DNA of 64,000 nt from positions 1,504,001-1,568,000 of the forward strand of contig OY760175.1 of NCBI GenBank assembly GCA_963663165.1, given 5' to 3'. Below are positions 18,186 to 34,006 of this stretch, piece by piece. Below the pieces are notes generated by a model. The model was not told where the DNA came from, did not search any database, and saw only the letters and a list, made by a program, of their open reading frames with translations. The stretch is from an uncultured Desulfospira sp. (lineage in GTDB: Bacteria; Desulfobacterota; Desulfobacteria; Desulfobacterales; Desulfobacteraceae). Within the stretch, counting starts at the first letter, position 1. Every line of letters starts with the position of its first letter. Both the position numbers and the translations under genes were made by a program.

Positions 18186-18410
18186 ATGAGAAGCACAATC
18201 ACAGCACGGGGCCAGACAGTTATCCCGGCTGCCATTAGACAAAAATTTAATATAACCAGTGCGGATCGCTTAGAATGGATCATTGAAAATAATAATTTAC
18301 GGGTAGTGCCGGTTAAACCCAATCCAATTGATGAATTTCGTGGTAAAGGAAAAGGCGGGTCGGCCAAAAGACTTGTGGCCGACCGGAAAAAAGACCGGGG
18401 CCTTGAATGA
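18186..18410 (+). CDS. AbrB/MazE/SpoVT-family antitoxin
   Basis: STITARGQTVIPAAIRQKFNI; overlaps the downstream PIN gene (ATGA). Confidence 0.88.
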   Translation: MRSTITARGQTVIPAAIRQKFNITSADRLEWIIENNNLRVVPVKPNPIDEFRGKGKGGSAKRLVADRKKDRGLE

Positions 18411-18811
18411 AACGATATGTTTTAGATACATCGGCATTGTTAACTTTGCGCGATGATGAAAATGGTGCCGATATTGTCGCCGACCTGCTTTACGAGGCTC
18501 AAAATCAAAAATGCCGGTGCTACGGCTGTTTTCTTTCCCTTATGGAAATATTATACCGGGTCTGGAAGGATGAAGACGAAATGGCCGGCCGGATAGCTTA
18601 TGAACAATGCCAATCTTTGCCGATTACATGGATCCATGAAACCAAAGACCTGCTCGAACTTGCCGCTAAAATTAAAGCAGAAAACTCGCTTTCCGTTGTT
18701 GATGCCTGGATAGCGGCCGTTTCAATACACAAAGACGCTGTTTTGGTCCATAAAGACCCGGAATTTAAAACCATTTCGTATCCTCAGTTAGAACTTCCGT
18801 ACAAAAAATAG
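18407..18811 (+). CDS. PIN-domain (VapC-like) toxin
   Basis: YVLDTSALL, E in helix, LSVVDAWIAA, LVHKDPEF. Confidence 0.9.
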   Translation: MKRYVLDTSALLTLRDDENGADIVADLLYEAQNQKCRCYGCFLSLMEILYRVWKDEDEMAGRIAYEQCQSLPITWIHETKDLLELAAKIKAENSLSVVDAWIAAVSIHKDAVLVHKDPEFKTISYPQLELPYKK

Positions 18812-18850: not shown

Positions 18851-19034
18851 TATAACGGCCACGGGCCGCCTTGGTTATCCAACCAAGAACCGCCCACAAC
18901 GAATAATGAAAGTCTTCTCAGGACGTTAGTGAGACTTTCATATAACGGCCACGGGCCGCTTTGGTTATCCAACCAAGAGCCGCCCACAACAAATATTGAA
19001 AGTCTTTTCAGGACCTTAGTGAGACTTTCATATA
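18851..19034 (+). repeat. Two tandem copies of a 90-bp two-hairpin element
   Basis: Exact 90-nt period; hairpins CTTGGTT-ATCC-AACCAAG and ATGAAAGTCT...AGACTTTCAT; other copies at 32659-32751, 51810-51908 and 56601-56692. Confidence 0.9.
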
Positions 19035-19067
19035 AAAAAAGGCGGGCACATTTTTGTGCCCGCCTTT
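19035..19067. terminator. Intrinsic terminator (likely bidirectional)
   Basis: AAAGGCGGGCACA-loop-TGTGCCCGCCTTT between convergent genes. Confidence 0.8.
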
Positions 19068-20908: not shown

Positions 20909-21541
20909 TTAATTTTTTTTATAGCTATTGGCGATGCCCTTGGTAAGCATTTCAAATATCATTAAAAGCCTCTGGTTGATCTGGCTTTCATCCTCTTCCC
21001 TGAACAGGGAGGCCCAGGCCGCCGAATGGGCGATATGGCTGAACAGCTCGGCCATGTCGGGTGCGGGATAATCCCTGATTTCCCCGGCCTCAATGCCCTG
21101 CTCCAGGATGTCCTGAAACAGGCTGACCATTTTTTCATTGAGCCGGTTGACCCGCTCATTGAGTTTGGGGATGGCCACCGCATCAATATTGGACCGCTCG
21201 GAAATATAGATCTTCACCACCTCCTGGTTGGCCCGGTAAAATTCAGACTGGGCTTTCATGCAGGCAAACAGCTTTGAGGGGGCATCCATATCCTTATTTT
21301 GCTTGATATCAACCATGATATGGCCCAGCTCATGAATCCGCTCAATGACCAGGTCATGGTACATTTCCTTTTTCCCCGGGAAATATTTGTAAATCGTTCC
21401 CAACGGATACTGGGAGGCTTTGGAGATCTGGACCATGGTGGTTCCGTGAAATCCCCTGGCCGCAAAGATCTGGCAGGCAGTTTTTAAAATTTCCTGCCGC
21501 TTTCTTAAATCGTCCCTCTCTTTTCTGGTCACCCGGCCCAT
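20909..21541 (-). CDS. TetR/AcrR-family transcriptional regulator
   Basis: FAARGFHGTTM.QI....GTIYKYFPGK HTH. Confidence 0.92.
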   Translation of the reverse strand: MGRVTRKERDDLRKRQEILKTACQIFAARGFHGTTMVQISKASQYPLGTIYKYFPGKKEMYHDLVIERIHELGHIMVDIKQNKDMDAPSKLFACMKAQSEFYRANQEVVKIYISERSNIDAVAIPKLNERVNRLNEKMVSLFQDILEQGIEAGEIRDYPAPDMAELFSHIAHSAAWASLFREEDESQINQRLLMIFEMLTKGIANSYKKN

Positions 21542-21561
21542 GCAAATCCTTGTTTCAAGAT

Positions 21562-21577
21562 TAGAATATATATTCTA
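21562..21577. promoter_or_regulatory. Perfect palindrome, putative TetR operator
   Basis: TAGAATATATATTCTA overlapping the -10 region of a minus-strand TTGACA promoter. Confidence 0.6.
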
Positions 21578-21879
21578 TAAACAGAAGTGATATTTTTGTC
21601 AAGAAAATTTAGGGAATTAGAGCAGAGACTGAAGCAGGGGCAAATCCGGAAGCCACGGGGTTGTTCTTTATAACTGTCCGGCCAATGCTGAGAAGCAAAC
21701 CAAAATCAGGGACCGTAGCGGCTCTATATGCCCCGGTCGGCTGAGCCCCCCGATATGATGAACACCACGGTCATAAAACCCATGAAAGACAAATTCAAAT
21801 CAACACGAAGAAAAAAGCTTCAAAATCTGAGCTGTTTGAACGGGTATAAAGATAACCAACCTTACTGTGCTAAACCGCA

Positions 21880-21990
21880 TTTTTTGGGGTTAAAAAGGGT
21901 CGATTAAGGCCATAAAACCCCTTACTTTTATAACCTTTTCTCTATATTTCAAGCCGCTTAGCGCGGCCCGACCCCCGCCGCCGACCGCCG
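21880..21990 (+). repeat. R0: diverged, inverted copy of the cassette-array repeat end, with junction stutter
   Basis: TTTTTGGGGTTAAAAAGGGTCGATTAAGGC...TTAGCGCGGCCCGACCCC matches the reverse complement of R1 (...TTAGCGTGGCCCGACCCC); followed by cgccg ccgaccgccg. Confidence 0.75.
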
Positions 21991-22217
21991 AAAGCCAAAA
22001 GAAAAAAAGGGAAAAAAACCTCACACCATTGTTACTTTTTTTTCATAATTGTATTACTTTTTTTTCACAATTTCTCCATATCTTTCGCAATCACAAATAA
22101 AAAATAAAAACTGAATGCTATTCATAATATTTTTTCTAATTTATTTATATTCAAAAACACCTGCCAATAAGCTTTTTCAAAATTATATTTCATTTCTCAT
22201 TCTCAAATTGTTGAAAT

Positions 22218-22233
22218 TGGCACGCCTCTTGCT
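22218..22233 (+). promoter_or_regulatory. Sigma54 (-24/-12) promoter
   Basis: TGGCACGCCTCTTGCT fits TGGCAC-N5-TTGC and lies upstream of the PEP-CTERM gene. Confidence 0.85.
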
Positions 22234-22442
22234 AACTTTTATATTCAGTGAGTGCCTAAATACACGACCGTATTTTTAGAAAATTGGCATCATGAACGCT
22301 CACTATGTAAAATTTTCAGGGCAATATGCCTATCGCAGTCAAAATACTGCTGGAATCCCAATAGTATGTAGTGCGTTTGGGAAATAAGCCCTCGAGAATC
22401 AAACTTAATTTACGTTATTTTTCAAAAGGAGGAGGTTTGCAC

Positions 22443-23567
22443 ATGAAAAAAGGTTTATTAGTCTTCTTTACTTTAATTTTTTTAAGTTTCAGTTCAGCTT
22501 ACGCCACCACGTACAGCGAGGAATTAGCGGTTGTTAATGCGATAGCTCAGTATCTGGTGGATAATCAAAATAATGACGGTGGATGGGACTGGACACAGGC
22601 TGCTGATGGCTCTGGAGATACGAATTCCGACACTGGATCAACCCAGAACACGGCAGGTGCAACTGCCCGTGGCCTGGTTTCTGCGTATAATCTGACAGGA
22701 AATGTTGACTATCTAAATTCGGCTATTGCAACTGCAAACTACATTATAGAGAACCAGACGACTGTGGCTGGAGCGCATAAAGACTCTTTGTTTCTGTATG
22801 AACTTGATCAAACCCTTACAAATTCGGGACTTGATAATACATATAATGGAACAACTAAAACCTACGGGAAGTATGCCCAAGACGCTGTCTCCGATGCCAT
22901 AACTGCATTCACAACAACTGGAAAATATAAGACTTACTCATGGACAACTTCTGGAAAACTTTCAACTGATATTATCGCTGCTTTTAATGAAATGAGGGGA
23001 ACAGATACTGACACCTACGCCGCATTAACACTCTGGGAAGCAGGCGAGTGGGCACAGGCAATCTATACAATCTCTACTGACACGAATTATAAAACTGAAG
23101 CAATCGAACTTGCCAACACATTATTTGATTTAGCTATAGGAGACGATGGTCTTTTTAACACCACAGATGATGATTATCTTGGAGCATATGCAGATATGTA
23201 TGCGCTTGGGCTTTCAGGACTTCTTGAAGGCATGGCAACAGTAGGCTCCGATTTATCAGACATTGAAGCTCTTGTAGAATACCTTAGTTCATTAGGCACC
23301 TATGGAGATTATCAGGTAGCCGGATATTACGCTCTTGCAATGGAGTTGGCAGGAGAAATTGCTTTGGCTGAGGCTGCTGGTGTTGATATATATGATATCT
23401 ATGAGTCTTATGGATTAAACAATGGTTATAGTGCAATTTACGTGGAATGCCTGGGAGAAGCCCTTCATGGGCTATCAAGCAACATGGTTCCCGAGCCCGC
23501 CACTATGGCCCTTTTCGGACTCGGCCTTTTGGGAATTGCTGGCATTAGCAGAAGAAAAAACAGCTAA
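22443..23567 (+). CDS. PEP-CTERM exosortase-sorted surface protein
   Basis: Signal peptide MKKGLLVFF..AYA; C-terminus VPEPATMALFGLGLLGIAGISRRK; QNNDGGWDW motif like prenyltransferase/alpha-alpha barrel repeats; AGGAGG RBS. Confidence 0.92.
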   Translation: MKKGLLVFFTLIFLSFSSAYATTYSEELAVVNAIAQYLVDNQNNDGGWDWTQAADGSGDTNSDTGSTQNTAGATARGLVSAYNLTGNVDYLNSAIATANYIIENQTTVAGAHKDSLFLYELDQTLTNSGLDNTYNGTTKTYGKYAQDAVSDAITAFTTTGKYKTYSWTTSGKLSTDIIAAFNEMRGTDTDTYAALTLWEAGEWAQAIYTISTDTNYKTEAIELANTLFDLAIGDDGLFNTTDDDYLGAYADMYALGLSGLLEGMATVGSDLSDIEALVEYLSSLGTYGDYQVAGYYALAMELAGEIALAEAAGVDIYDIYESYGLNNGYSAIYVECLGEALHGLSSNMVPEPATMALFGLGLLGIAGISRRKNS

Positions 23568-23632
23568 TTACGGGAATGAAATGTAAATTGAAATGGGTTT
23601 TGAATTGTTGTTGAAAATTGTGAAATGGGTTG

Positions 23633-23864
23633 AAATGGGGTCGGGCCACGCTAACCTATTTAAAATACAATGGATAGGCTTAATTTTTGACCCTATTTCC
23701 GCCTTAATCAGCCCTTTTTAGACCCAAAAACAAAGGATTAAGGGATCAAAAGCGAGGAACGCAAGTACCCCATACCCCACAGTACCCCGGCCCCCAAATC
23801 AGGGCCCGACAAAAACCAAAAGCCGGTCGAAATTTCCTTTTCGACCGGCTTTTGGTTTAATGCT
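23633..23864 (+). repeat. R1 cassette-array repeat
   Basis: AAATGGGGTCGGGCCACGCTAAC... ending in hairpin AAACCAAAAGCCGGTCGAAA...TTTCGACCGGCTTTTGGTTT. Confidence 0.92.
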
Positions 23865-23887
23865 CCCCATAGCCTGGTAAACAGTTT

Positions 23888-23935
23888 TTAAGGTTTCAGG
23901 ATCTGCATAATGTTTCTGGCACCATGAAGTACTCT
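23888..23935 (-). pseudogene. 3' remnant of a ParE toxin gene
   Basis: Encodes RVLHGARNIMQILKP*, compared with RVPHGARNIIQILKA* for the parE at 32881; the downstream flank is also homologous. Confidence 0.8.
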
Positions 23936-23940
23936 TTGAG

Positions 23941-24163
23941 AAATGGGGTCGGGCCACGCTAACCTGTTTAAAATACATTAAATAGCCTTAATTTTTGGCC
24001 TTATTTCCGCCTTAATCAGCCCTTTTTAGGCCCAAAAACAAGGGTTAAGGATTTATAACAGGCGAACGTAAAAACCCCATAAACCCCCGGCCCAAATTAG
24101 AGCCGGACAAACCCCAAAGGCCGGTTGAAATTTTCTTTTCGACCGGCCTTTGGGGTTCATGCT
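23941..24163 (+). repeat. R2 cassette-array repeat
   Basis: Same start motif and terminal hairpin as R1. Confidence 0.92.
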
Positions 24164-24266
24164 CTTTGCCGGTACTTGATTTCGGCCACCACAGCCGGTG
24201 TCCCAGCTATATCAATTGTTTTCATAACCTCTCTGGATAAAAACAATTCAATCCCTATAATTATCG

Positions 24267-24674
24267 TTACGCCTTCCGGGCATCAAGGGTCTTGACGTGG
24301 GGATATGCCAGGATTCTATTATCCGCCGTAATCAGCTGTAAATTATGCTTTCTGGCCGATGCCACAATAATCTGGTCAGCAGGATCTTTGTGAAACTCCC
24401 CGGGAAGGGTGTTGGCCTCAATGGAAATATCAATTGATAATGGTACAATCCTGATCCCTTTAGGATTAGCAGCAGCTGTCAGCCAGTCAGCCAGAGGCAA
24501 AGACAGACACAATTTTCCCAAAGAAACTTTCTTGGCAATTTCCCAAGGGGTAATGGCCGATATGGCGAGGTCTTCCGAGCTGGAACGGCGTAGAACATCG
24601 CTTATGTTTCCGGATAAATCACCCGAGGACTCAGCCATCCAGATCAGGACATGGGTATCAAGTAAATACGTCAT
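24267..24674 (-). CDS. PIN-domain toxin (VapC-like)
   Basis: MTYLLDTHVLIW, SAITPWEI, HKDPADQIIVA, LITAD. Confidence 0.92.
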   Translation of the reverse strand: MTYLLDTHVLIWMAESSGDLSGNISDVLRRSSSEDLAISAITPWEIAKKVSLGKLCLSLPLADWLTAAANPKGIRIVPLSIDISIEANTLPGEFHKDPADQIIVASARKHNLQLITADNRILAYPHVKTLDARKA

Positions 24675-24909
24675 TTTCGGACGCTTCCCATTCATCGTCC
24701 CCCAGGGGAGAGTCAAAATCTTCTGCTATGTATGTAACGGTACCTGCCAGAGCTCCGAAAATTGGGTTTCCCCTTTTCTTTGGCGCAGGACAGGAAACAA
24801 CAGCCACAACTTTTCCCCGGTTCGTTACATGAATAGGTTGATCCAAATCCGGCAGCTTTCTTAAATATTCTGTGCATTTTGCTTTAAATTCAGTGACGGC
24901 GACCCGCAT
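24658..24909 (-). CDS. Phd/YefM-family antitoxin
   Basis: VTEFKAKC...IHVTNRGKVVAVV; overlaps the PIN gene; GAGGTG RBS. Confidence 0.9.
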   Translation of the reverse strand: MRVAVTEFKAKCTEYLRKLPDLDQPIHVTNRGKVVAVVSCPAPKKRGNPIFGALAGTVTYIAEDFDSPLGDDEWEASENDVFT

Positions 24910-25064
24910 ATCACACCTCATTTTTAAACTATTTAACCATATTATATAGTCCCAAGGTCGATTTATCAAGACAGATTATACAACGGGTCCGTGTCGTTGT
25001 ACCAAACCGCCAATGCGGAAATGGGGTTTGGAAATTTGGAAATGGGGTTTGGAAATGGGGTTGG

Positions 25065-25293
25065 AAATGGGGTCGGGCCACGCTAACGTATTTAAAACAC
25101 AGTAAATAGCCTTAATTTTTGGCTTTATTTCCGCCTTAATCAATCCTTTTTAAGCCCAAAACAGGGATTAAGGGGGGGATGCCCGAACCAACGAGCTCAA
25201 ATACCACATAAAACCCCCGGCCCCCCAAATCAGGGCCGGACAAAAACCAAAGGCCGGTCGAAATTTTTTTTTCGCCCGGCCTTTTGGGTTCAT
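25065..25293 (+). repeat. R3 cassette-array repeat
   Basis: Same start motif and hairpin; preceded by stutter at 25017-25064. Confidence 0.92.
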
Positions 25294-25348
25294 ATTTTAA
25301 GTTAGCAAGACTGGAAACCGGGAAATCGCCCCCGGAGTTGTTAACAGA

Positions 25349-25684
25349 TTATTCGCCGTACATGTCGGTTATCAGTTTCCTTAGTTGGGCTGTTTTGGTT
25401 TCAGACAGGCGGTCAATTCTATTTTTTAATCTTTGTTTGCTGATGGTGCGAATTTGATCAACGGCAATTTCAGCATCTTTCTGCGCGCATTTAATCTGTA
25501 ACCGGGTTCTCCATCTTGGATGAAGCTTTGAAGTCAATGGACAGATGACAATGGTTTCAAGGTATTGATTCATTTCATCACGGCTGACAACCACGACCGG
25601 CCGGACCTTTTTGATCTCACGGCCAAGGGTGGGGTCAAGATCGGCAAAATAGATATCATACCGTTTAATATCCAAAATCCTCAT
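25349..25684 (-). CDS. PemK/MazF-family toxin
   Basis: YFADLDPTLGREIKKVRPVVVVS, PLTS, DQIRTISKQRL; start codon uncertain (25684 or 25675). Confidence 0.92.
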   Translation of the reverse strand: MRILDIKRYDIYFADLDPTLGREIKKVRPVVVVSRDEMNQYLETIVICPLTSKLHPRWRTRLQIKCAQKDAEIAVDQIRTISKQRLKNRIDRLSETKTAQLRKLITDMYGE

Positions 25685-25940
25685 CCTCGAGTCCATCCGC
25701 CAGCGTTACATCAAACTCATCCCAATTTTCCTTTTCCCCGGCCATTTCTTTACACGTTTCCTCCCAGGACAGCTTGCCTTCCTCTTCTTTTTTCCGGAGA
25801 AGGAGTCCTTTATCGGTTTCTTCAAGCACCAGCATATTCATGAATCCATACTTTTGAATGATGTCCTTTGGGATACGGATTCCCCTTGAGTTTCCAATGG
25901 GAATGAGTTTAATGGTATTCACCCGCTTTGCTTTTTCCAT
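25665..25940 (-). CDS. AbrB/MazE-family antitoxin
   Basis: LIPIGNSRGIRIPK; acidic C-terminus; overlaps the toxin gene. Confidence 0.9.
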   Translation of the reverse strand: MEKAKRVNTIKLIPIGNSRGIRIPKDIIQKYGFMNMLVLEETDKGLLLRKKEEEGKLSWEETCKEMAGEKENWDEFDVTLADGLEDEDFGY

Positions 25941-26088
25941 TTGAGCCCCTCTCTTTGATTGGATAGCGTAGTTACAGTAATTACAATAATAATGAAAATC
26001 ACAATCAGTGTCAATGCGTGGTCACCCAAAGCTTCAAAAGGGTTCAAGGAGTGGTGGCAAAGGCGTGAAATGGAAATGAAATGGTGTG

Positions 26089-26306
26089 AAATGGGGTCGG
26101 GCCACGCTAACCTATTTAAAATACAATAGATAGGCTTAATTTTTGACCCTATTTCCGCCTTAATCAGCCCTTTTCAGGCTCAAAAAACAGGAATTAAGGA
26201 TTAGCAAGCTCAAAGATGCTATAAATTCACCGGCCCCATATTAGGGCCCGACAAAAACCAAAGGCCGGTCGAAATTTTTTTTCGACCGGCCTTTGGGGTT
26301 CATGCT
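26089..26306 (+). repeat. R4 cassette-array repeat
   Basis: First ~85 nt differ from R1 at one position; terminal hairpin present. Confidence 0.92.
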
Positions 26307-26370
26307 GTTTGTTTGTTGAGGTACTTTTGAAAAATGAGGTCTGCCTTGCCATGACAGGAACCCGATCAAA

Positions 26371-27531
26371 TTAAAGGCTGCTGCCACATGCCCGCCACCC
26401 CATAACCTGTATCCCCTTTTGCTGATAGGAGTCATCTCCGGCGTAAATCAACGTCGGCGTTTGGGCTTTCTCTTTGGCAAGGGAACACCATTTTTTAAGT
26501 CCGGCAAAAGATTCATGTGTCAAAGTGCGGCCCGACTTAATTTCAACCGGAGTTAAATAGATCCCGTTTTCCATAATAAGATCAACTTCATTGCCGTTGC
26601 TGTCCCGCCAGAAAAAAAAGGCCGGTTTTTCGCCCTGGTTCAGTTTTGATTTTATCATTTCTGAGACAATAAAAGTTTCAAAAATACTGCCCCGCAAGGG
26701 ATGGGTTATCATCTGTTCAGATGTTCTGATCCCTAAAAGCCAGGATACCAGGCCAACATCGTAGAAATAGAGCTTGGGCATTTTTACCAGCCGTTTATTA
26801 AAATTCTCATGATGGGGACGAAGAAGAAAAATGATATAACTTGCCTCAAGGACAGATATCCATGATTTTACAGTATTATGGGTAATCCCGCATTCAGTCG
26901 CCAGAGAAGAAAGGTTTAGAAGCTGCCCTGTCCTGCCGGCGCACAGCCTTACAAAGCGCTGGAATGTTTCCAGATCCTGAATTTTGAGCATTTGCCTGAC
27001 ATCCCGTTCTACATAGGCGGTTACATAAGCGCTGTACCAGGCAGAAGGCTGAAGTCCCCGGTCATAAATCGGTGGATAACAGCCGGTCAGCAGCATGGTA
27101 TCAATACTGCCTGGCAACGCACTCGCAAGGGTAAGTTCCGGTATGGAAAAAGGCAGCAGTTCAACAAAGGCCGTCCGTCCGGCAAGGGATTGTGTAATAC
27201 CGGACATCAGGCCGAACTGCTGAGATCCCGTCAATATAAAAAGCCCCATTCCACCGTTATTATCCACCAGGGTTTGGAGATAGGACAAAATTTGAGGACA
27301 TCGCTGCACTTCATCCAGAACCGCTCCGTTTGGAAACCGGGCAAGAAAAGAACGGGGATCTTCTGTTGCGGCCTGCCTGAGATCCGGCTCTTCAAGAGAT
27401 GCATATGGGTGATTTGAAAAAACCGCCCTGGCAAGGGTAGTCTTACCTGATTGGCGTGGTCCGGTCAGGGTTACAACGGGAAATCCGCCCAGCAGGTTTT
27501 CAAGTATTTCTCTTGCATTTCGATGAATCAT
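26371..27531 (-). CDS. AAA+ ATPase with C-terminal DUF4143/PD-(D/E)xK-like domain
   Basis: GPRQSGKTTL, LDEVQ, LTGS, LAGR, KMPKLYFYDVGL, FETF, RDSNGNEVDLI, VEIKSG. Confidence 0.88.
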   Translation of the reverse strand: MIHRNAREILENLLGGFPVVTLTGPRQSGKTTLARAVFSNHPYASLEEPDLRQAATEDPRSFLARFPNGAVLDEVQRCPQILSYLQTLVDNNGGMGLFILTGSQQFGLMSGITQSLAGRTAFVELLPFSIPELTLASALPGSIDTMLLTGCYPPIYDRGLQPSAWYSAYVTAYVERDVRQMLKIQDLETFQRFVRLCAGRTGQLLNLSSLATECGITHNTVKSWISVLEASYIIFLLRPHHENFNKRLVKMPKLYFYDVGLVSWLLGIRTSEQMITHPLRGSIFETFIVSEMIKSKLNQGEKPAFFFWRDSNGNEVDLIMENGIYLTPVEIKSGRTLTHESFAGLKKWCSLAKEKAQTPTLIYAGDDSYQQKGIQVMGWRACGSSL

Positions 27532-27593
27532 GGCAAATTTCTATAAACCTCACTCAAAATGAAATATAAATTCATTTCATACATTAAGCCGGA

Positions 27594-27630
27594 TTATGCA
27601 ATTTGTAAATAACTTTTACAAATTGCATAA
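27594..27630. promoter_or_regulatory. 16-bp perfect inverted repeat upstream of the ATPase gene
   Basis: TTATGCAATTTGTAAA-N5-TTTACAAATTGCATAA. Confidence 0.6.
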
Positions 27631-27700
27631 AAGACTCTTGGGGCCTATATATTTTGGGAGTGAAATGTGAAAAAAGCGCCGCCCACCGCGCACACGCATT

Positions 27701-27832
27701 CTAAAACAAATCAGAATGTGTTCCGGTCCGTTCAAAAACAACTTTATCCGGTTCAATTATATAGATCAGCAGCCAATCAGATTCAATGTAACATTCCCGG
27801 CACCCCTTCCAATTGCCGATCAGCTTATGATC
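27701..27832 (-). pseudogene. yafQ: YafQ toxin, 3' half (split by transposon)
   Basis: DHKLIGNWKGCRECYIESDWLLIY...FERTGTHSDLF*. Confidence 0.9.
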
Positions 27833-27975
27833 CCGGTTGAGAATGGTCACAAAAAATCATGGAAAAATTGAAGATAATTTGCAAGATATGTCAGGTTTGA
27901 GGCAGAAGTTCCCCTGTTTATCTCGCAAATAATCGTGAAACTCCTGCCTCCCCACCCAATAACAGGGCAGGAGAT

Positions 27976-28563
27976 ATGCTATCAGAAGTTCTGAAAAACG
28001 AAAGTTTTTTTTGGGATCTATACAAAATAGATCTGGCAACAGCCGAACGTTATAGACAGATGAAGTGCCCCCACTGCCAGGGACCGTTGTATTATGCCAA
28101 TTATCCGCGCAAACCCAGGGGGGAGCCTGAAGGGTTGTCTGAAGAATGTTTTTTACAATTCAGTTTATGTTGCGGAAGGGAAGGCTGTCGACGTCGTTTG
28201 ATCCCGCCAACCTGCCGTTTCCTTGGTAAAAACATTTACTGGTATGCGGCCATTCTGACGATTGTGTCCGACTGGCAGAACCAATCTGTAGGTATCACGA
28301 TGTCCAGGTTTGCTGAAACAATCGGTATCTCCCGCAACACCCTTAGCCGCTGGGTCAGCTTATTCAAAGAAATATTTCCAACAAGCTCTCAATGGAAGAA
28401 AATCCGGGGCCGAGTACCTGCAAGCGTAAAAAATGATCGTCTTCCAGCAAGTTTGGTCAACTTCTATCTGCATCAACAGGCGTCCATCAAAAAAACGTTG
28501 ATCTCCTGTTTGTCATTCTTGTCTCAAGGCAGTGAAATATCACAAAAAATAAGGGCCGGGTAA
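27976..28563 (+). CDS. Transposon accessory protein (Zn-ribbon plus putative HTH)
   Basis: CPHC ... CCGREGCRRR; IGISRNTLSRW. Confidence 0.75.
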   Translation: MLSEVLKNESFFWDLYKIDLATAERYRQMKCPHCQGPLYYANYPRKPRGEPEGLSEECFLQFSLCCGREGCRRRLIPPTCRFLGKNIYWYAAILTIVSDWQNQSVGITMSRFAETIGISRNTLSRWVSLFKEIFPTSSQWKKIRGRVPASVKNDRLPASLVNFYLHQQASIKKTLISCLSFLSQGSEISQKIRAG

Positions 28564-28678
28564 TCTCACGCAGAAGATGGGCGTGGCCTTGGGCGCTCAA
28601 CTGTTCTATCAAAGGGGCCGGGATTTTTATCAGCATTTCGCTGAAAATTTTAACTCAAAATTGAAAGGACCCCGGCCT

Positions 28679-30124
28679 ATGAACAGTAAAAACCAAAGTC
28701 CGGTTGATAACTGGGCTTTGTTTCGCTTCTCAGTCGTTGGCGGTTTGCTGGCAAATCCGCCGGCCAAAGGTGAGCTGCGCAAGGAACTGGAAAAGCTTTC
28801 CTATCAGATTTACACCCATCCCATCACGAACGAATCAACGGTATTTCATTTTTCAACTATTGAAAGCTGGTATTACAAGGCAAAAAATGCCCAGGACCCC
28901 ATTATTGCTTTAGGGCGGAAAGTTCGTTCTGACTATGGCGGTTCAATTGTATTCACACCTGAACTGATCCGGATGCTGGGCAGACAATACCGGACTTATC
29001 CGAACTGGAGCTACAAACTGCACGCAGATAATTTCGCAGCAGAACTCCAGGAAAAGGAGGCTTCAGTATCGGTACCATCCTATGCCAGTGTCCGGCGGCG
29101 GATGATCGAAAGGGGGTGGACCAGGAAGCCCTCAGCAAAGAAAAAACAGACAGCGGGTATGAAAATTGCCGCAAAGCGGTTCGAAAGCCATGAAATCCGA
29201 GGATACGAAGCAGAATATGTTCACAGCCTGTGGCATCTGGATTTTCATGAAGGCAGTCTGCGGGTGGTGGATAACAACGGTAACTGGTATACGCCCAAAG
29301 CCTTATGTATTCTTGACGACCATTCCCGCCTGTGCTGCCACATCCAATGGTATTCAGGAGAAACCACCCAGGATTTGATTCATGGATTGACCCAGGCATT
29401 TTTCAAAAGGGGGCTTCCCAGGGCACTGATGACGGACAACGGATCTGCCATGACCTCCCATGAGTTTTGCAACGGTCTTAAAAAAACAGGGATACTTCAT
29501 GAAACGACACTGCCCTACAGCCCTTATCAAAACGGTAAGCAGGAAGCCTTTTGGGGAACCCTTGAAGGCAGATTGATGGCCATGCTGACCCGGGTGGACC
29601 CTCTGACACTGGAATATCTCAATCACAGCAGTCAGGCCTGGGTCGAGATGGAATATAACAAAACCAGGCATAGTGACATCGGCACATCTCCTGTTCAACG
29701 CATGCTTGAAGGCAAAGATGTTTCCCGGCCGGCACCGGATGAAGAGCAACTGAGGTTCGCCTTTACAGTCTGCGAATCCAGAAATCAGCGAAAATCTGAC
29801 GGTACCGTGTCCATCAACGGGGTAAGATTTGAGATCCCTTCCCGGTTTCACCATATCCCTCGGTTACATGTCTGCTTTGCCAATTGGGATAAATCCATGG
29901 CCTGGCTCATGGACCAGAGAACCGGCAAACAGATTGCGCAGATCTACCCCCAGGACAAAATCAAAAATGCTTCAGGAAAACGAAAGATCAAGTCGAGACC
30001 TGAGCATACCATTCTACCGGATGAAACATTGAAAGAATCCGAGCCTGCATTATTAAGAAAACTGATGGCCGAGTATGCCCAAAGCGGCATGCCTCCAGCC
30101 TATCTTCCCAAAGGAGAATCATGA
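28679..30124 (+). CDS. DDE integrase/transposase (rve core, Mu-like C-terminus)
   Basis: LWHLD, ILDDHSR, LMTDNGSA, PYSPYQNGKQE; RKSDGTVSINGVRFEIP. Confidence 0.92.
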   Translation: MNSKNQSPVDNWALFRFSVVGGLLANPPAKGELRKELEKLSYQIYTHPITNESTVFHFSTIESWYYKAKNAQDPIIALGRKVRSDYGGSIVFTPELIRMLGRQYRTYPNWSYKLHADNFAAELQEKEASVSVPSYASVRRRMIERGWTRKPSAKKKQTAGMKIAAKRFESHEIRGYEAEYVHSLWHLDFHEGSLRVVDNNGNWYTPKALCILDDHSRLCCHIQWYSGETTQDLIHGLTQAFFKRGLPRALMTDNGSAMTSHEFCNGLKKTGILHETTLPYSPYQNGKQEAFWGTLEGRLMAMLTRVDPLTLEYLNHSSQAWVEMEYNKTRHSDIGTSPVQRMLEGKDVSRPAPDEEQLRFAFTVCESRNQRKSDGTVSINGVRFEIPSRFHHIPRLHVCFANWDKSMAWLMDQRTGKQIAQIYPQDKIKNASGKRKIKSRPEHTILPDETLKESEPALLRKLMAEYAQSGMPPAYLPKGES

Positions 30125-30948
30125 ACAACAAACAGCTTCTGGCTTATTACGGCCTTAAATGGAACCCTTTTTTTCCTAATATCCCCGTGGAAGCCTTATG
30201 GCATCCGCCATTGATGAACAGTTTTATTTTTCGTCTTGAGAATATGACCCTGAACGGGGGCTTTGCTTTGATCAGCGGGGACCCCGGCCTTGGCAAATCC
30301 AAGGCGTTGCAGATGATTGCCCAAAAGTTCGGTAAACTTGACGAGGTAGTTGTCGGGGTAATGGAACGTCCCCAAAGCAGTGTCGGAGACTTTTACCGGG
30401 AAATGGGAGTTTTGTTTGGTGTCAATTTGAGCCCTGCCAACCGGTACGGCGGGTTCAAGGATCTTCGGGAGCGCTGGAAAAGTCATGTAAAAACCACCTT
30501 GTTCCGGCCCATCCTGCTCATAGATGAGGCCCAGGAGATGCTGACCGGATGCTTAAATGAACTGCGTTTGTTGAACAGCGCGGACTTTGACTCCCAAAAC
30601 CTGTTGACCACCGTGATTTGCGGCGATGACCGGCTCCCGGAACGGTTCAGATCAAGATCCCTGGTATCGCTGGGAAGCCGGATGCAGTTCCGGCTGACGC
30701 TGCTTCCCTATGTCCGGGATGACCTGCTGGATTACATGGATCACAGCCTGAACCAGGCCGGCGCCCCGCACTTAATGACGAAAACTCTGATCAGGACCCT
30801 TGCAGACCATTGCGCCGGCAACCTGCGGGTTCTTAACAATATGGCCGCAGACCTGCTGACTGCGGGGATTGAAAAAGAACTCAATCAATTGGACGAAAAG
30901 CTTTTTATGGAAGTCTATTCCAGACAGCCGCCCAATAAAAAATCATAG
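30121..30948 (+). CDS. ExeA-like AAA ATPase (transposition helper)
   Basis: Walker A GDPGLGKS, Walker B ILLIDEAQ; ATGA coupling to the transposase. Confidence 0.9.
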   Translation: MNNKQLLAYYGLKWNPFFPNIPVEALWHPPLMNSFIFRLENMTLNGGFALISGDPGLGKSKALQMIAQKFGKLDEVVVGVMERPQSSVGDFYREMGVLFGVNLSPANRYGGFKDLRERWKSHVKTTLFRPILLIDEAQEMLTGCLNELRLLNSADFDSQNLLTTVICGDDRLPERFRSRSLVSLGSRMQFRLTLLPYVRDDLLDYMDHSLNQAGAPHLMTKTLIRTLADHCAGNLRVLNNMAADLLTAGIEKELNQLDEKLFMEVYSRQPPNKKS

Positions 30949-30957
30949 GAGAACAAT

Positions 30958-31140
30958 ATGGGTATTTATGATGATCCGGACATGAAACTGGAAGAAATCA
31001 CACAGGAATTGGAACATTTTATCCTGGATATGGTCCTTGCCGGACTTGAAAGCTTGAATATGGAATATCGGGCCTTCAGGCGATTCCAGAAACAAAGGCT
31101 CACGGAAAAGAACCGTCATAAAGAACACGAGCCGTTTTGA
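30958..31140 (+). CDS. Small hypothetical protein in the transposon
   Basis: 60 aa, AGGAG RBS, co-oriented within the element. Confidence 0.65.
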   Translation: MGIYDDPDMKLEEITQELEHFILDMVLAGLESLNMEYRAFRRFQKQRLTEKNRHKEHEPF

Positions 31141-31177
31141 ACGTACGCCCGGACTCCAAAGGTCCGGGCCTGCCTCA

Positions 31178-31966
31178 ATGGAAAAAATACTTTGGAAAAT
31201 CGGCAATTATTTTAAGCACCGCTTCAGCCTGGCAGTTCTTGATGAAATTAAGGGCCGGTGGCCCGTTCTCCCCTCTTGTAAAAACATCCCTTATCTTAAA
31301 GCTGAAAATGCCGGAGGAAGGCACATCCTGATCAGACCTGATCCTGTTATTCAGCCTTATTATTTTCTTGCCGACGATTTAAACATTGACCTGCTTATCC
31401 GGCATCATCAATCCATATCAAACCGCTTTAAACCAGGCAGGATGGTTATAGAAACATCTCCCGGCAATTATCAAATTTGGATTCACAGTGACCGTCCGTT
31501 AAGCCTTCCCGAAAAAAAGTATTGGTTGGAAAACATGCACAGTGATCCCGGCGCCGACCCGAAAAACAGGTGGGGCAGATGCCCCGGGTTCAGGAACAGA
31601 AAAGCAAAACACAGAACGCCTTCAGGACAATACCCTTTGGCAAAGCTATTATGGGTGGACTGGAAATGCCAGGCTATTGTCCCTGAAATAGAATTATCCT
31701 CCCAACCTCAAGAAGTCTTTTCCCATCAACCCCGGGGGGGAGTGTGCCATAACGGTAATATTTCCCGCTCCCTCTATGATAAGGGTGACGAATCTGCCAC
31801 TGATTTTGCATATGCTCTGGCCCTCTATAGAAGAGGTTTCTCACGAATGGAAATTTACAATCGCATTATCAATGAAAGGCAGGATTGGATTAATCATGCG
31901 GGTGAACGAAAAAAAACACAGTATCTGATCAGGACATTACAGAAAGCTGAAAAAATTATCAGTTAA
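31178..31966 (+). CDS. RepB'-like archaeo-eukaryotic-type DNA primase
   Basis: LADDL, VIETSPGNYQIW, DPGA...WGRCPGFRNRK, C-terminal GDESATDFAYA...YLIRTLQKA resembling RSF1010 RepB' motifs (recognised by eye). Confidence 0.8.
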   Translation: MEKILWKIGNYFKHRFSLAVLDEIKGRWPVLPSCKNIPYLKAENAGGRHILIRPDPVIQPYYFLADDLNIDLLIRHHQSISNRFKPGRMVIETSPGNYQIWIHSDRPLSLPEKKYWLENMHSDPGADPKNRWGRCPGFRNRKAKHRTPSGQYPLAKLLWVDWKCQAIVPEIELSSQPQEVFSHQPRGGVCHNGNISRSLYDKGDESATDFAYALALYRRGFSRMEIYNRIINERQDWINHAGERKKTQYLIRTLQKAEKIIS

Positions 31967-32043
31967 AATCGGGCTCTCTTGGCCTCCGGGAAAGCCCTTA
32001 TTTACCATGAAACGTTGTCCATGAATTATCGTGATTGCTCTCA

Positions 32044-32178
32044 CCGGTGAATGGGATCAAGCACTTCTTCCGCCACAAGAGAGCGAATGATTATTTTTAA
32101 CTTTTCGAGATTTTTCCCACGTTCTTTCATTTGCCTGATGTCACGCTCAAACTGCTTTGTATATGCAGGCGTAAGCAT
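32044..32178 (-). pseudogene. yafQ: YafQ toxin, 5' half (split by transposon)
   Basis: MLTPAYTKQFERDIRQMKERGKNLEKLK...LDPIHR, then the transposon end; TGATG coupling with the antitoxin. Confidence 0.9.
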
Positions 32179-32438
32179 CAGATTCCCAATTTTTTGAACA
32201 TGTCATCCGTATCTTTGCAAATGACCAGATCCCGTCCGGCATCCGTCTGCGAAAAAGTTTTGAGCGTTGTTTTATTGGGAATTGCCACATCAAACGGAAG
32301 CCCTTTTTTCAATTCAACCTGTTTATAAAATAAGGTGATCGCTTGAGTTGTGGTTAGCCCAAGCTGCTGAAATATATGCTCGGCTTTACCCTTTAAATCC
32401 GGTTCAATTCGAGCCCTGATGGTGGATGTTTTGCCCAT
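32178..32438 (-). CDS. dinJ: RelB/DinJ-family antitoxin
   Basis: IRARIEPDLK.KAEHIFQQLGLTTTQAITLFY.QV...GLPF. Confidence 0.88.
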   Translation of the reverse strand: MGKTSTIRARIEPDLKGKAEHIFQQLGLTTTQAITLFYKQVELKKGLPFDVAIPNKTTLKTFSQTDAGRDLVICKDTDDMFKKLGI

Positions 32439-32550
32439 GATTTACCTCTCTGTGGATATAATATATTTTGTAGCTCAAATGAGGAACACTGTCAAGCAGT
32501 GAGATTTCATCAGGATTCCAAATAAACGCCTCAGATGACTTCTCAGTAAT

Positions 32551-32856
32551 AAATGGGGGGCCACGCCAATGTATTTAAAATACAAACAGCCTTAATTTTA
32601 GGCCTCATTTCCGCCTTAATCAGCCCTGTTTAGGCTCAAAAAACAGGGATTAAGGATTTACATGAAAGTCTTACTAACAATCTGAAAAGACTTTCATTTT
32701 TCGTTGTGGCCCGATGCTCGGTTGGATAACCCAATCGGGCCATGCCCGTTAGTAAACTCAAAGATACTATAAATTCATCGGCCCCATAGTGGAGCCGGAT
32801 CAAAACCCAAAGGCCGGTCGAAATTTTATTTTCGTCCGGCCTTTGGGTTTCATGAT
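32551..32856 (+). repeat. R5 cassette-array repeat, interrupted by a 90-bp element
   Basis: AAATGGGGGGCCACG... plus terminal hairpin; extra segment at 32659-32751 relative to R4. Confidence 0.88.
32659..32751 (-). repeat. 90-bp two-hairpin element inserted in R5
   Basis: TA-CATGAAAGTC...GCCCGT-TA, homologous to the 18851 units. Confidence 0.8.
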
Positions 32857-32880
32857 CCCCATAGCCTGGTTAAACAGTTT

Positions 32881-33168
32881 TTAAGCTTTTAGGATCTGAA
32901 TAATGTTTCTGGCCCCATGAGGTACTCTTTCAATGCGTATATTGGGACCAGCGGTATAAAAAATCAGGTAGGATTTAAATGGAACCATTCTAATATTGTC
33001 CCCGAAATCGGGGCGCAGGGGATATAAATCCGGCGTATCGGTTAACTGTTGACACACCTCCCTGACCTCTAAAATAAAAGACAAAGCCCGCGAAGGGTTA
33101 TCTTTAGCGATATAGTCACCAATTTCTTCAAGATCAAATTCAGCAAGAGGTGAAAAATAACAGTGCAT
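32881..33168 (-). CDS. parE: RelE/ParE-family toxin
   Basis: FSPLAEFDLEEIGDYIAKDNPSRA...YLIFY...HGARN. Confidence 0.88.
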   Translation of the reverse strand: MHCYFSPLAEFDLEEIGDYIAKDNPSRALSFILEVREVCQQLTDTPDLYPLRPDFGDNIRMVPFKSYLIFYTAGPNIRIERVPHGARNIIQILKA

Positions 33169-33174
33169 TGAATT

Positions 33175-33435
33175 TTATCCCTTTGTTCCCCAATCTCTAT
33201 ATTTGGCTTCCAGGCGATTGAAAACTATGTCCACTGGTGTGCCGTCACCACTGTCTTTTCCGGCTTGAATTTTCGCTTTCAATTGTTGAATCTGAATAGC
33301 GTGAATTTCTTCTTGTTCTTCAAACAAACGCAACGCTTCCCGTATGACTTCGCTGGCACTGGTATATCGCCCGCTTTCCACTTTGCTTTTAATCATATTT
33401 TCAAAATGTGGTCCTATGGCATAACTACTTGGCAT
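33175..33435 (-). CDS. parD: ParD-family antitoxin
   Basis: VESGRYTSASEVIREALRL...IQAGKDSG. Confidence 0.9.
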   Translation of the reverse strand: MPSSYAIGPHFENMIKSKVESGRYTSASEVIREALRLFEEQEEIHAIQIQQLKAKIQAGKDSGDGTPVDIVFNRLEAKYRDWGTKG

Positions 33436-33523
33436 TCCCGCCCCCTTTTATCAGATATTATCACTATTTGATAAATCCTACCATCTTATCGACGAGGTGT
33501 CATCAAAATTTTTAAAATGTTTA

Positions 33524-33660
33524 AAATGGGGTCGGGCCACACTAACGCATTTAAAATACATTAGATAGCCTTAATTTTTGGTCCTATTTCCGCCTTAATC
33601 AGCCCTTTTCAGGCTCAAAAAACAAGGGCTAAGAATATTTTTTTATAACTGGCGAAGGTA
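33524..33660 (+). repeat. R6 cassette-array repeat (truncated, no terminal hairpin)
   Basis: AAATGGGGTCGGGCCACACTAAC...CCGCCTTAATCAGCCC. Confidence 0.88.
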
Positions 33661-33742
33661 AAGGTCTGTAAGAGGCCTGTCCCCCCAGGCAAACGGATAT
33701 CTAAGATGATTGCAGATAACAATCGGCAGGCGTGCGAACGGC

Positions 33743-33789
33743 AAAAAAAAGCGCACCCTAAAGCCATACCGGCTTTGGGGTGCGCTTTT
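33743..33789 (-). terminator. Terminator of the qrc operon
   Basis: AAAAGCGCACCCTAAAGCC-loop-GGCTTTGGGGTGCGCTTTT; T-run on the minus strand. Confidence 0.8.
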
Positions 33790-33832
33790 AAACTTTATGG
33801 CCCTCTCTCTGGTTCAGGAAAGGGTCATGATG

Positions 33833-33991
33833 CTAATGGTGAGAATCGCCCTTATCCGTGACCGTGTCATAGGCGGCCTTAAGGATACAGTAGGTCATGC
33901 CGGCACCGAGGATGCCGATGGCGTACCAGAATCCGCCGAAGAAGACGGCATGGCCGATGTCCCAGGCCCATTCAAAGCAAAATGGAAACAT
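33833..33991 (-). CDS. 52-aa membrane peptide at the end of the qrc operon
   Basis: AAGGAGAG RBS; MFPFCFEWAWDIGHAVFFGGFWYAIGILGAGMTYCILKAAYDTVTDKGDSHH; 15 nt after qrcD and before the terminator. Confidence 0.8.
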   Translation of the reverse strand: MFPFCFEWAWDIGHAVFFGGFWYAIGILGAGMTYCILKAAYDTVTDKGDSHH

Positions 33992-34006
33992 AGGTTCTCT
34001 CCTTTT

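Follow-up and report, generated by a model that had tools for sequence, protein, structure and literature searches.

A strain-variable array of toxin-antitoxin and ATPase cassettes delimited by solo TIRtron ends in an uncultured Desulfospira

The genome of an uncultured Desulfospira sp. (assembly GCA_963663165.1, G000 below) carries, in a stretch of 64,000 nucleotides (nt) of contig OY760175.1 (positions 1,504,001 to 1,568,000; hereafter the window, to which all coordinates without another label refer), an array of toxin-antitoxin and ATPase cassettes separated by direct copies of a non-coding repeat (R), the first part of which we identify below as the terminal inverted repeat (TIR) of a transposon of the TIRtron type. 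A first-pass annotation made from the letters of the window reported six direct copies, and all six (R1 to R6) are recovered where it had put them: five exact matches to the 17-mer AAATGGGGTCGGGCCAC lie at 23633, 23941, 25065, 26089 and 33524, against a chance expectation of 0.07, and R5 lies at 32551, where 3 nt of AAATGGGGTCGGGCCAC are absent, as had also been noticed. The near-identity of R1 and R4 described there holds as well, with one mismatch within the first 60 columns and the next at base 87. Each repeat is built of a conserved first part of about 110-115 nt, followed in all but R6 by a tail of about 110 nt ending in a hairpin. This hairpin, of 45-48 nt, closes R1 to R5, with a z of about -7 in R4, and R6 lacks it, again in agreement with the earlier description; it is preceded by a GGGCCCGAC-like word, and the identity of R1-R5 to one another fades 5-12 nt past it.

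On its anchor side the array abuts a plus-strand PEP-CTERM gene (22443-23567, PF07589), on the far side of which lies a seventh copy of the repeat that the first-pass annotation had overlooked. This copy is inverted (21975, minus strand), and represents a diverged solo TIRtron end with echoes, occupying 21860-21990 and facing away from the PEP-CTERM gene (E 7.6e-13 at 21975-21869; E-values for single repeats refer to the end model presented below). Also overlooked were the echoes themselves, by which we mean short tandem partial copies of the repeat start, found 5' of R1, R3, R4 and R6. All array repeats and echoes lie on the plus strand. An echo tract at 23572-23631, with 7 GAAAT-type words in 65 nt, leads into R1 (23632-23860, E 1.8e-14), which comprises a carried 5-mer GAAAT, a TIR at 23637-23745, and the lineage-specific tail with its hairpin at 23812-23858. 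R2 (23940-24160, E 8.7e-16) likewise has TIR, tail and hairpin (24110-24157). Further echo tracts, read from the sequence, precede R3 (tract 25019-25063; repeat 25064-25295, hairpin 25243-25290, E 2.6e-13) and R4 (tract 26066-26087; repeat 26088-26305, hairpin 26254-26300, E 5.9e-14). R5 (32550-32855, hairpin 32803-32850, E 2.8e-4) has the 3-nt motif deletion in its TIR and, unnoticed at first, a 95-nt insert of a different repeat at 32657-32751, while R6 occupies 33500-33650 together with its echoes and consists of the TIR only (E 2.5e-12). One echo-like junction, at 27660-27672, has no TIR after it; it lies between the promoter region of the ATPase gene and the yafQ 3' end and probably marks a seventh joint. 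The repeat inserted in R5 also occurs in the window at 18853-19036, 51851 and 56599, and has about 237 matches in the genome; two of its copies adjoin an AbrB/MazE and PIN gene pair at 18186-18811, outside the array, which no end repeat adjoins.

Between the repeats lie the minus-strand modules that the first-pass annotation had named, and Pfam matches bear out their identity (PIN, Phd, PemK/MazF, MazE, AAA_14 with DUF4143, RelB/DinJ, ParE and ParD), the matches being weak for Phd (E 9e-4) and for MazE. The intact cassettes encode a Phd antitoxin with a PIN toxin (24267-24969, own promoter-like site 24969-24941), MazE with MazF (25349-26014, own promoter-like site 26014-25986), an AAA_14 and DUF4143 ATPase (26371-27531) and ParD with ParE (32881-33435); the toxin-antitoxin modules retain their promoter-like sites 75-95 nt from the junction. 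Between R1 and R2 only a 79-nt 3' remnant of parE is found (23860-23937, minus strand), a truncated copy of an R plus parE unit; it matches the last 3' stretch of the complete parE gene (32852-32930) at 91% identity, and meets R2 through 7 non-native nt. The remaining cassette, dinJ (RelB family) with yafQ, is split, a fact that had escaped the first-pass annotation: its dinJ and yafQ 5' part lie at 32044-32438 (Pfam for RelB, otherwise sequence), and its yafQ 3' part at 27701-27837, which is continuous with 32047 in another strain. The name yafQ was given from the reading of the sequence and the dinJ partner, not from a family match. Most of the R4-R5 gap is filled by the transposon that splits it, an unrelated multi-copy DDE element (27838-32043, plus strand; rve, AAA_22 and RepB primase genes) with a 5-bp target duplication in yafQ, which is not part of the array system. 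This 4.2-kb element also contains two unassigned open reading frames, and has 11 genome copies at 97-100% identity, two of which appear as split matches.

The origin of R became apparent from searches of the genome and its relatives, in which, as the first-pass annotation had thought worth checking, Y1 transposase genes were found to adjoin the repeat. A profile of the first part of R finds 29 genome sites at E < 0.05 (only matches starting near the motif were counted), one of which precedes, by about 110 nt, a Y1 transposase gene that an IS200 element interrupts. In addition, an intact gene of the same subfamily, which we call 'MARANRH' (G000 4910635-4911432), is preceded by a related motif, the inverse of which follows closely on its stop codon. 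A scan of genome contigs for relatives of the enzyme gave 51 loci, of which 37 rows were examined for ends. The motif stands 110-175 nt upstream of TIRYT transposase genes in these other genomes; 24 of the 37 rows show it within 100-185 nt, and 15 show it inverted after the stop codon (read by eye). An end model was built from those 24 ends, the other 13 rows being excluded (end variant, cut off or absent), and contains no sequence from the window's genome. It nonetheless matches all six repeats (R1-R4 and R6 at E 1e-12 to 1e-15, R5 at 3e-4), and gives no match in a block-shuffled genome. With the motif end included, 51 diverged sites pass E 1e-3 across G000, where the ends occur as single, paired and grouped copies; this genome-wide spread had not been noted previously. 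In the window array only solo direct ends are present, with no transposase gene between two inverted ends.

The enzyme encoded by these genes has the HUH motif and catalytic tyrosine of a Y1 transposase: residues H60-x-H62 and Y121 are conserved across 26 enzyme sequences, the structural model (pLDDT 82) has TnpA-REP 4ER8 as its best fold match (E 8e-6), and a sequence search of solved structures returned weak IS200-type matches only. The tyrosine motif is YIDLNM (YxxxNM), and the C-terminus forms a conserved helical extension in the predicted model, with no match to a helix-turn-helix (HTH) family in Pfam. A family profile scores four other TIR-flanked Y1 genes of G000 at E 1e-26 to 1e-32, compared with 1e-8 to 1e-11 for REP-type and IS200 genes. 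No match to the enzyme was found in plasmids (E 1e-40) or phages (E 1e-20), and viral contigs gave 0 motif matches. Since a model of TIRYT ends independent of the window matches R, and the associated enzyme combines the HUH and tyrosine residues with a TnpA-REP fold, we identify the first part of R as the terminal inverted repeat of a TIRtron (TIRYT subfamily 'MARANRH') and R1-R6 as solo ends, with which the lineage-specific tail and hairpin have travelled. The full tail and hairpin occur only in this array; a near-identical copy at G000 6006357 has a partial tail without the hairpin, and none of 44 metagenome loci has the tail. The suggestion of the first-pass annotation that a Y1/RAYT-like HUH enzyme encoded elsewhere might serve the array is therefore supported, by the homology of TIRYT gene ends to R, yet on grounds other than those it gave: it had cited an absence of terminal inverted repeats, whereas R is itself one, and the hairpins, whereas the conserved part has none. 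At one further locus, a TIRYT gene (L209:11007-11816) takes the place of a cassette, with a mini-element on either side of it, and lies outside both ends.

The outer junctions of these ends are informative about where the element terminates. A homologue of at least 85% identity that lacks the repeat was available for 24 of the 230 outer junctions queried. At every one of the 24 the host sequence breaks off, with 5-34 non-native nt (mostly 6-10, shortest 5-6) before the GGGG of the end, and only one has its final five bases native at the breakpoint. TIR pairs that are at least 90% alike but occupy unrelated sites (n = 18) have the same outer 4-mer in 16 cases, the same 5-mer in 13, the same 6-mer in 8 and the same 7-mer in none, as against a baseline of dissimilar pairs in which the outer 4 and 5 bases are the same in 97 and 39 of 6735. 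Because the 5-6 nt at junctions are non-native and tips are common to like ends, we place the end of the element 5-6 nt outside GGGG, each lineage carrying its own tip and the partner not being chosen by motif. The term 'site-specific', applied to the system previously, thus stands for the donor side, but not for the joined host sequence, which has no target motif across the 24 junctions. A chosen target was considered when the native integrase gene at G000 6006360 proved to have the same 6-mer, and was rejected when the wider test gave only the 1/24 above. An internal DNA guide of the kind suggested by a fold of R4, which pairs outer GAAAT with inner ATTTC, was likewise rejected, that fold being no better than those of shuffled sequence and no position covarying with the tip above the null (108-136 ends).

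Echoes are a second recurrent feature of these junctions. The tip is repeated within 45 nt upstream in 73 of 164 ends, compared with 11.4 (maximum 22) under shuffled pairing, which controls for the inclusion in this set of loci selected for an AAAT tip; random GGGGWC sites show echo-like repeats in 8.7% of cases, and the duplicated outer part peaks at 5-6 nt. Longer versions of the same phenomenon are partial duplicates of 34, 100 and 184 nt and the 308-bp unit of R1 plus parE remnant, and in G157 whole TIRtrons stand in tandem, with read-through tails cut at differing places. Inwards, sister ends cease to be identical at points ranging from +100 to beyond +320 (78 pairs). Echoes also occur, at one end or at both, with the four other TIR-flanked Y1 genes mentioned above, which have three end types (G000 4833887-4834864, 3023580-3024283, 4888279-4889253 and 4421595-4422263), and thus extend beyond this subfamily. 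Elsewhere in G000, a reverse-transcriptase element interrupts an end repeat at 1366263-1368179 (L008:2166-4180), leaving 11 bases of the repeat start before it. One end subfamily is found at breakpoints at G000 913117, 1225444, 1227301, 1245770, 1246272, 1262585 and 3252559, which from their translations look like RHS/YD-repeat toxin-immunity regions, making shuffling of toxin tips there a possibility.

The capture and shuffling of cassettes proposed in the first-pass annotation accords with differences among relatives, since the sister genomes G000 and G001, and contigs of other strains, differ in which cassettes they have or in how these are ordered. At two loci outside the array the two sisters differ by repeat plus cassette units. 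Beside another PEP-CTERM gene, one flank in G000 carries a repeat with an AAA-DUF4143 gene and the opposite flank a PemK pair, whereas in G001 the first flank holds nothing but echoes and truncated repeats, and the second a repeat with a TumE pair; at the TIRYT-gene locus, a PemK module is present in G000 only, and a repeat with DUF6088-AbiEii in G001 only. A strain contig at 92% identity runs from the ParD promoter through 98 unseen nt and the hairpin to MazF-MazE, an order not present in the window, while in other strain contigs the PEP-CTERM gene is skipped or replaced, other echoes occur, or yafQ is intact (these contigs come from four runs in two studies, and the best-matching run may be the source sample). 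At the tetR-qrc locus, where the array of the window lies, the PEP-CTERM gene of G002 is a different one and its tetR-qrcD interval contains no repeat; a model trained on R found no match at orthologous qrcD loci in 8 genomes, and the tetR-qrc neighbourhood is kept only in G002.

Similar arrays exist in other genomes of the order, in which the end motif is present in 246 of 401 genomes (a backwards control gives mostly 0-1 per genome). In 12 genomes chosen for high counts, clear same-strand clusters occur, among the 150 of 189 matches listed (which leave out two of the genomes), in G072, G202, G005, G022, G157 and G204, and a further array was found in G438. The G072 array comprises 12 left and 10 right ends, arranged as 260-nt mini-elements, with cargo bounded by outer junctions on both sides, and its 10 intervals hold toxin-antitoxin-type genes in 7 cases, a TIRYT gene in 1 and polysaccharide genes in 2. 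In contrast, the arrays of G202, G005 and G438 are built on solo ends, the first having 9 of them, with four AAA-DUF4143 genes and a HepT-nucleotidyltransferase pair. Cassette boundaries were also sought from distant homologues of the cargo, an approach that was abandoned as the matches covered coding parts only. PEP-CTERM or dockerin genes were seen at end arrays at G000 1377307-1378820 and 807114-809010, at 21975-23633 in the window and at L212:2788-6021, and three times such genes lie between outward-facing ends; genome-wide, PEP-CTERM enrichment near ends is borderline and not established (3/61 versus 0.66, P 0.051).

The repeat identity, the carried 5-6-mer, the lack of a target motif, the echoes, the variable inner ends and the cassette polymorphism can all be read from the sequences themselves, and from them we infer a nick, a role for the enzyme and an order of events. 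On balance, we consider it probable that the array was built by a Y1/HUH TIRYT enzyme acting in trans, through rounds of nicking, extension and rejoining. The enzyme would bind the end of about 110 nt and nick one strand 5-6 nt outside GGGG, holding the nicked 5' end as a phosphotyrosine, while the free 3' end would be extended by host polymerase through the end repeat into the DNA on its inner side. A 3'-OH, belonging either to the new strand, stopped at a variable place, or to other DNA, would then attack the phosphotyrosine. Were an HUH enzyme to nick just outside the end and keep the 5' end, a later attack on that end by a 3'-OH would yield tandem products as well as a fixed start with a variable stop. 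Very short rounds would leave echoes, medium rounds the 184- and 308-bp units, and long rounds units of repeat plus cargo; new units would be placed at the existing outer junction, so that the array would grow in one orientation. Whole toxin-antitoxin modules with their promoters may be over-kept for their value in addiction or defence, with further deletions and swaps perhaps arising where direct copies recombine by homology. For foreign cargo to become joined to the inner side in the first place, a second step would be needed, which could be a prior adjacent insertion, a template switch or a second end (as in G072).

[quoted passage not shown] Ends and toxin genes do both lie in AT-rich accessory DNA (ends at 44.6% GC versus 50.0%), solo ends and MITE pairs without such cargo are common, and RecA would also give presence/absence differences between direct repeats. 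Outside the array in G000, an end is present within 1 kb of 8 of 51 PIN, ParE and PemK genes, compared with 0.62 for shifted positions, but most (43 of 51) have no end within that distance, and a GC-matched non-coding control raises the expectation for loci near toxins to 3.4, against 8 of 28 observed (P 0.016). The enrichment of toxin genes near ends is therefore real but modest after GC matching; a control repeat is near toxins at 12 of 180 loci, a lower rate than the 8 of 28 of the ends. Moreover, passive accumulation fits poorly with co-copied fragments that end arbitrarily and are followed by the carried 5-6-mer, as crossovers inside repeats do not make these, and with the 10 intervals of G072, which have an end or MITE at nearly every boundary. 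A different possibility, which we regard as distinctly unlikely, is that whole two-ended mini-elements insert on either side of a gene, after which end-to-end or homologous recombination mobilises what lies between them in circular form; R would then be such a mini-element with a decayed right end, and its hairpin a Helitron-like stop. The paired 260-nt left and right ends of G072, with outer junctions on both sides of the cargo, agree with such bracketing, as do the loss of identity just after the hairpin of R1-R5 and the word before it. However, a right-end model has no match in the tail of R, R6 and the G000 6006357 copy lack the hairpin, the tail is confined as described above, and the arrays of G202, G005 and G438 consist of solo ends.

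Two further alternatives concern the nature of the repeat. The oriented, toxin-antitoxin-rich array could be a CALIN, an integron cassette cluster without an integrase, whose atypical attC sites would be acted on by the IntI encoded elsewhere in the genome, the more so as an integrase above the family cut-off, missed by the first-pass annotation, does exist at G000 4194198. It is the only IntI, lies 2.66 Mb from the array, and none is found beside the array; R shares homology with the ends of transposase genes, no structure is seen in its conserved part, no match to the end model falls in the IntI region, and a scan for attC-like core pairs at 21500-34000 gave 0, with a scanner that is insensitive in that it found only 1 weak site in the genome's IntI region. 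We hence judge a CALIN to be very improbable, and give still less credence to the structured non-coding RNA that the first-pass annotation had offered as an alternative. Strong as the tail hairpin is, it is lineage-restricted, Rfam returned only chance hairpin matches far below the gathering cut-offs, and the conserved part folds, as DNA, at z -0.28 to -0.94. The integrase region itself (G000 4178000-4195607) adjoins PIN and PemK modules interrupted by intron-like reverse-transcriptase pieces.

Several observations nevertheless count against assembly by a TIRYT enzyme in trans. The only intact gene of the subfamily in G000 lies 3.4 Mb from the array, and the ends of that gene have diverged too far to be picked up by the R-trained model; a second gene (G000 804745-806107) is interrupted by an IS200 element, its G001 copy (L206:5872-6642) being intact. 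The R copies are 83-98% identical over the first 60 columns and less so further on, from which it follows that most events are old, and the joint at 27660 has no repeat. The identical array of G001 lies inside a shared 22.5-kb block (window 21501-44028, at least 99% identity, with flanks at 86-94%), which may reflect recent interspecies recombination or a binning effect; it was therefore rejected as an independent copy and is not a second observation. The contig comparison shows strain variants only, junction pairs from one genome are not independent, and the 12 genomes surveyed for same-strand clusters were picked for high motif counts. Metabolic or housekeeping genes occur in several arrays (L188, L189, L190), and the orientation of cargo, fixed within an array, differs across genomes: a universal orientation, as seen in G000, G001 and G005, was rejected given its reversal in L188, L170 and L212.

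A broader interpretation, which we advance only tentatively, is that TIRYT and its ends form a chromosomal, HUH-driven counterpart of the integron, capturing whole defence and toxin-antitoxin modules via any free 3' end. The RHS toxin tips and surface-protein genes found elsewhere, the growth on the anchor side, the enzyme carried as a cassette and the echo tracts as a log of rounds might, with equal reserve, belong to the same platform. For TIRYT-type enzymes, the literature covered contains no tested activity, and the locus family provides a substrate (the end of about 110 nt plus 5-6 nt) which, together with the predicted nick and products, makes TIRYT function directly testable. If assembly by the enzyme is correct, it would represent a route of defence-island assembly invisible to integron finders, with arrays that could be mined for new defence genes, and there would be technical interest in an enzyme that can attach one defined single-strand end to any 3' end; were the platform interpretation also correct, it would give a function to a large Y1 subgroup.

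The array shares features with several known systems. Sedentary integrons and CALINs form oriented arrays of small cassettes that are rich in toxin-antitoxin modules, variable among strains and have one repeat per cassette, each cassette being followed by an attC site, an imperfect palindrome with R''/R' cores, but the array here has no IntI nearby, its cassettes keep their own promoters and its junctions are imprecise. One-ended rolling-circle transposition of IS91/ISCR elements, and capture by Helitrons, combine a fixed start with a variable stop and the capture of neighbouring genes; unlike IS91/ISCR, which have a Y2-type transposase, ori and ter ends and a target tetranucleotide, the present system has a small Y1 enzyme (judging from its fold), two symmetric ends and no target tetranucleotide. 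It differs from IS200/IS605 elements, in which an internal DNA guide reads a tetra- or pentanucleotide target, in that no internal guide covaries and in that the target lacks the 5-mer in 23 of 24 junctions.

The closest published counterpart is the TIRtron, described from sequence as a Y1 gene between terminal inverted repeats starting with GGGG (Di Nocera et al. 2013, PMC3733652), whose repeats are also single, paired and grouped, as they are here. The ends reported here are about 110 nt long, in contrast to TIRtrons as published, and their motif GGGGTCGG has one mismatch, at position 7, to the published consensus GGGGWSAS, which is itself common to some but not all published TIRs. In the parts of that article covered here there is no mention of cargo, cassette arrays, a carried 5-6-mer, echoes or a mechanism (the word 'toxin' has 0 occurrences in its main text), and the present subfamily may be among the examples in its Figure 9 or supplements. 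In the open-access literature we found no published role for these ends in cassette arrays, and no carried tips or echoes at them. TIRYT has been equated with TnpA-Y1 subclass 2.1, present in 14.9% of the strains surveyed (Quentin et al. 2018, 10.1101/279083), which corresponds to RAYT Group 1, a group described as having no REP hairpins (Bertels et al. 2017, PMC5581495). As our subfamily departs from the consensus (GGGGTCGG, and YxxxNM rather than the class 2 YxxxNP), we place it near subclass 2.1 on sequence features, and suggest that it works in a similar way. At the C-terminus, where subclass 2.1 has an HTH-like extension, the predicted model shows the conserved helices described above and Pfam gives no HTH match. 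For TnpA-REP, nicking, extension and attack of a 3'-OH on the phosphotyrosine have been proposed, yielding tandem units, in a model that could take neighbouring genes along (Ton-Hoang et al. 2012, PMC3333891). The enzyme here has the same fold, and that model fits our junctions; unlike in REPtrons, R shows no GTAG-footed hairpin in alignments, its end is long and unstructured, and the arrays hold many genes. The array of the window is strain-variable and delimited by solo ends of the described TIRtron type, and is not a wholly new system.

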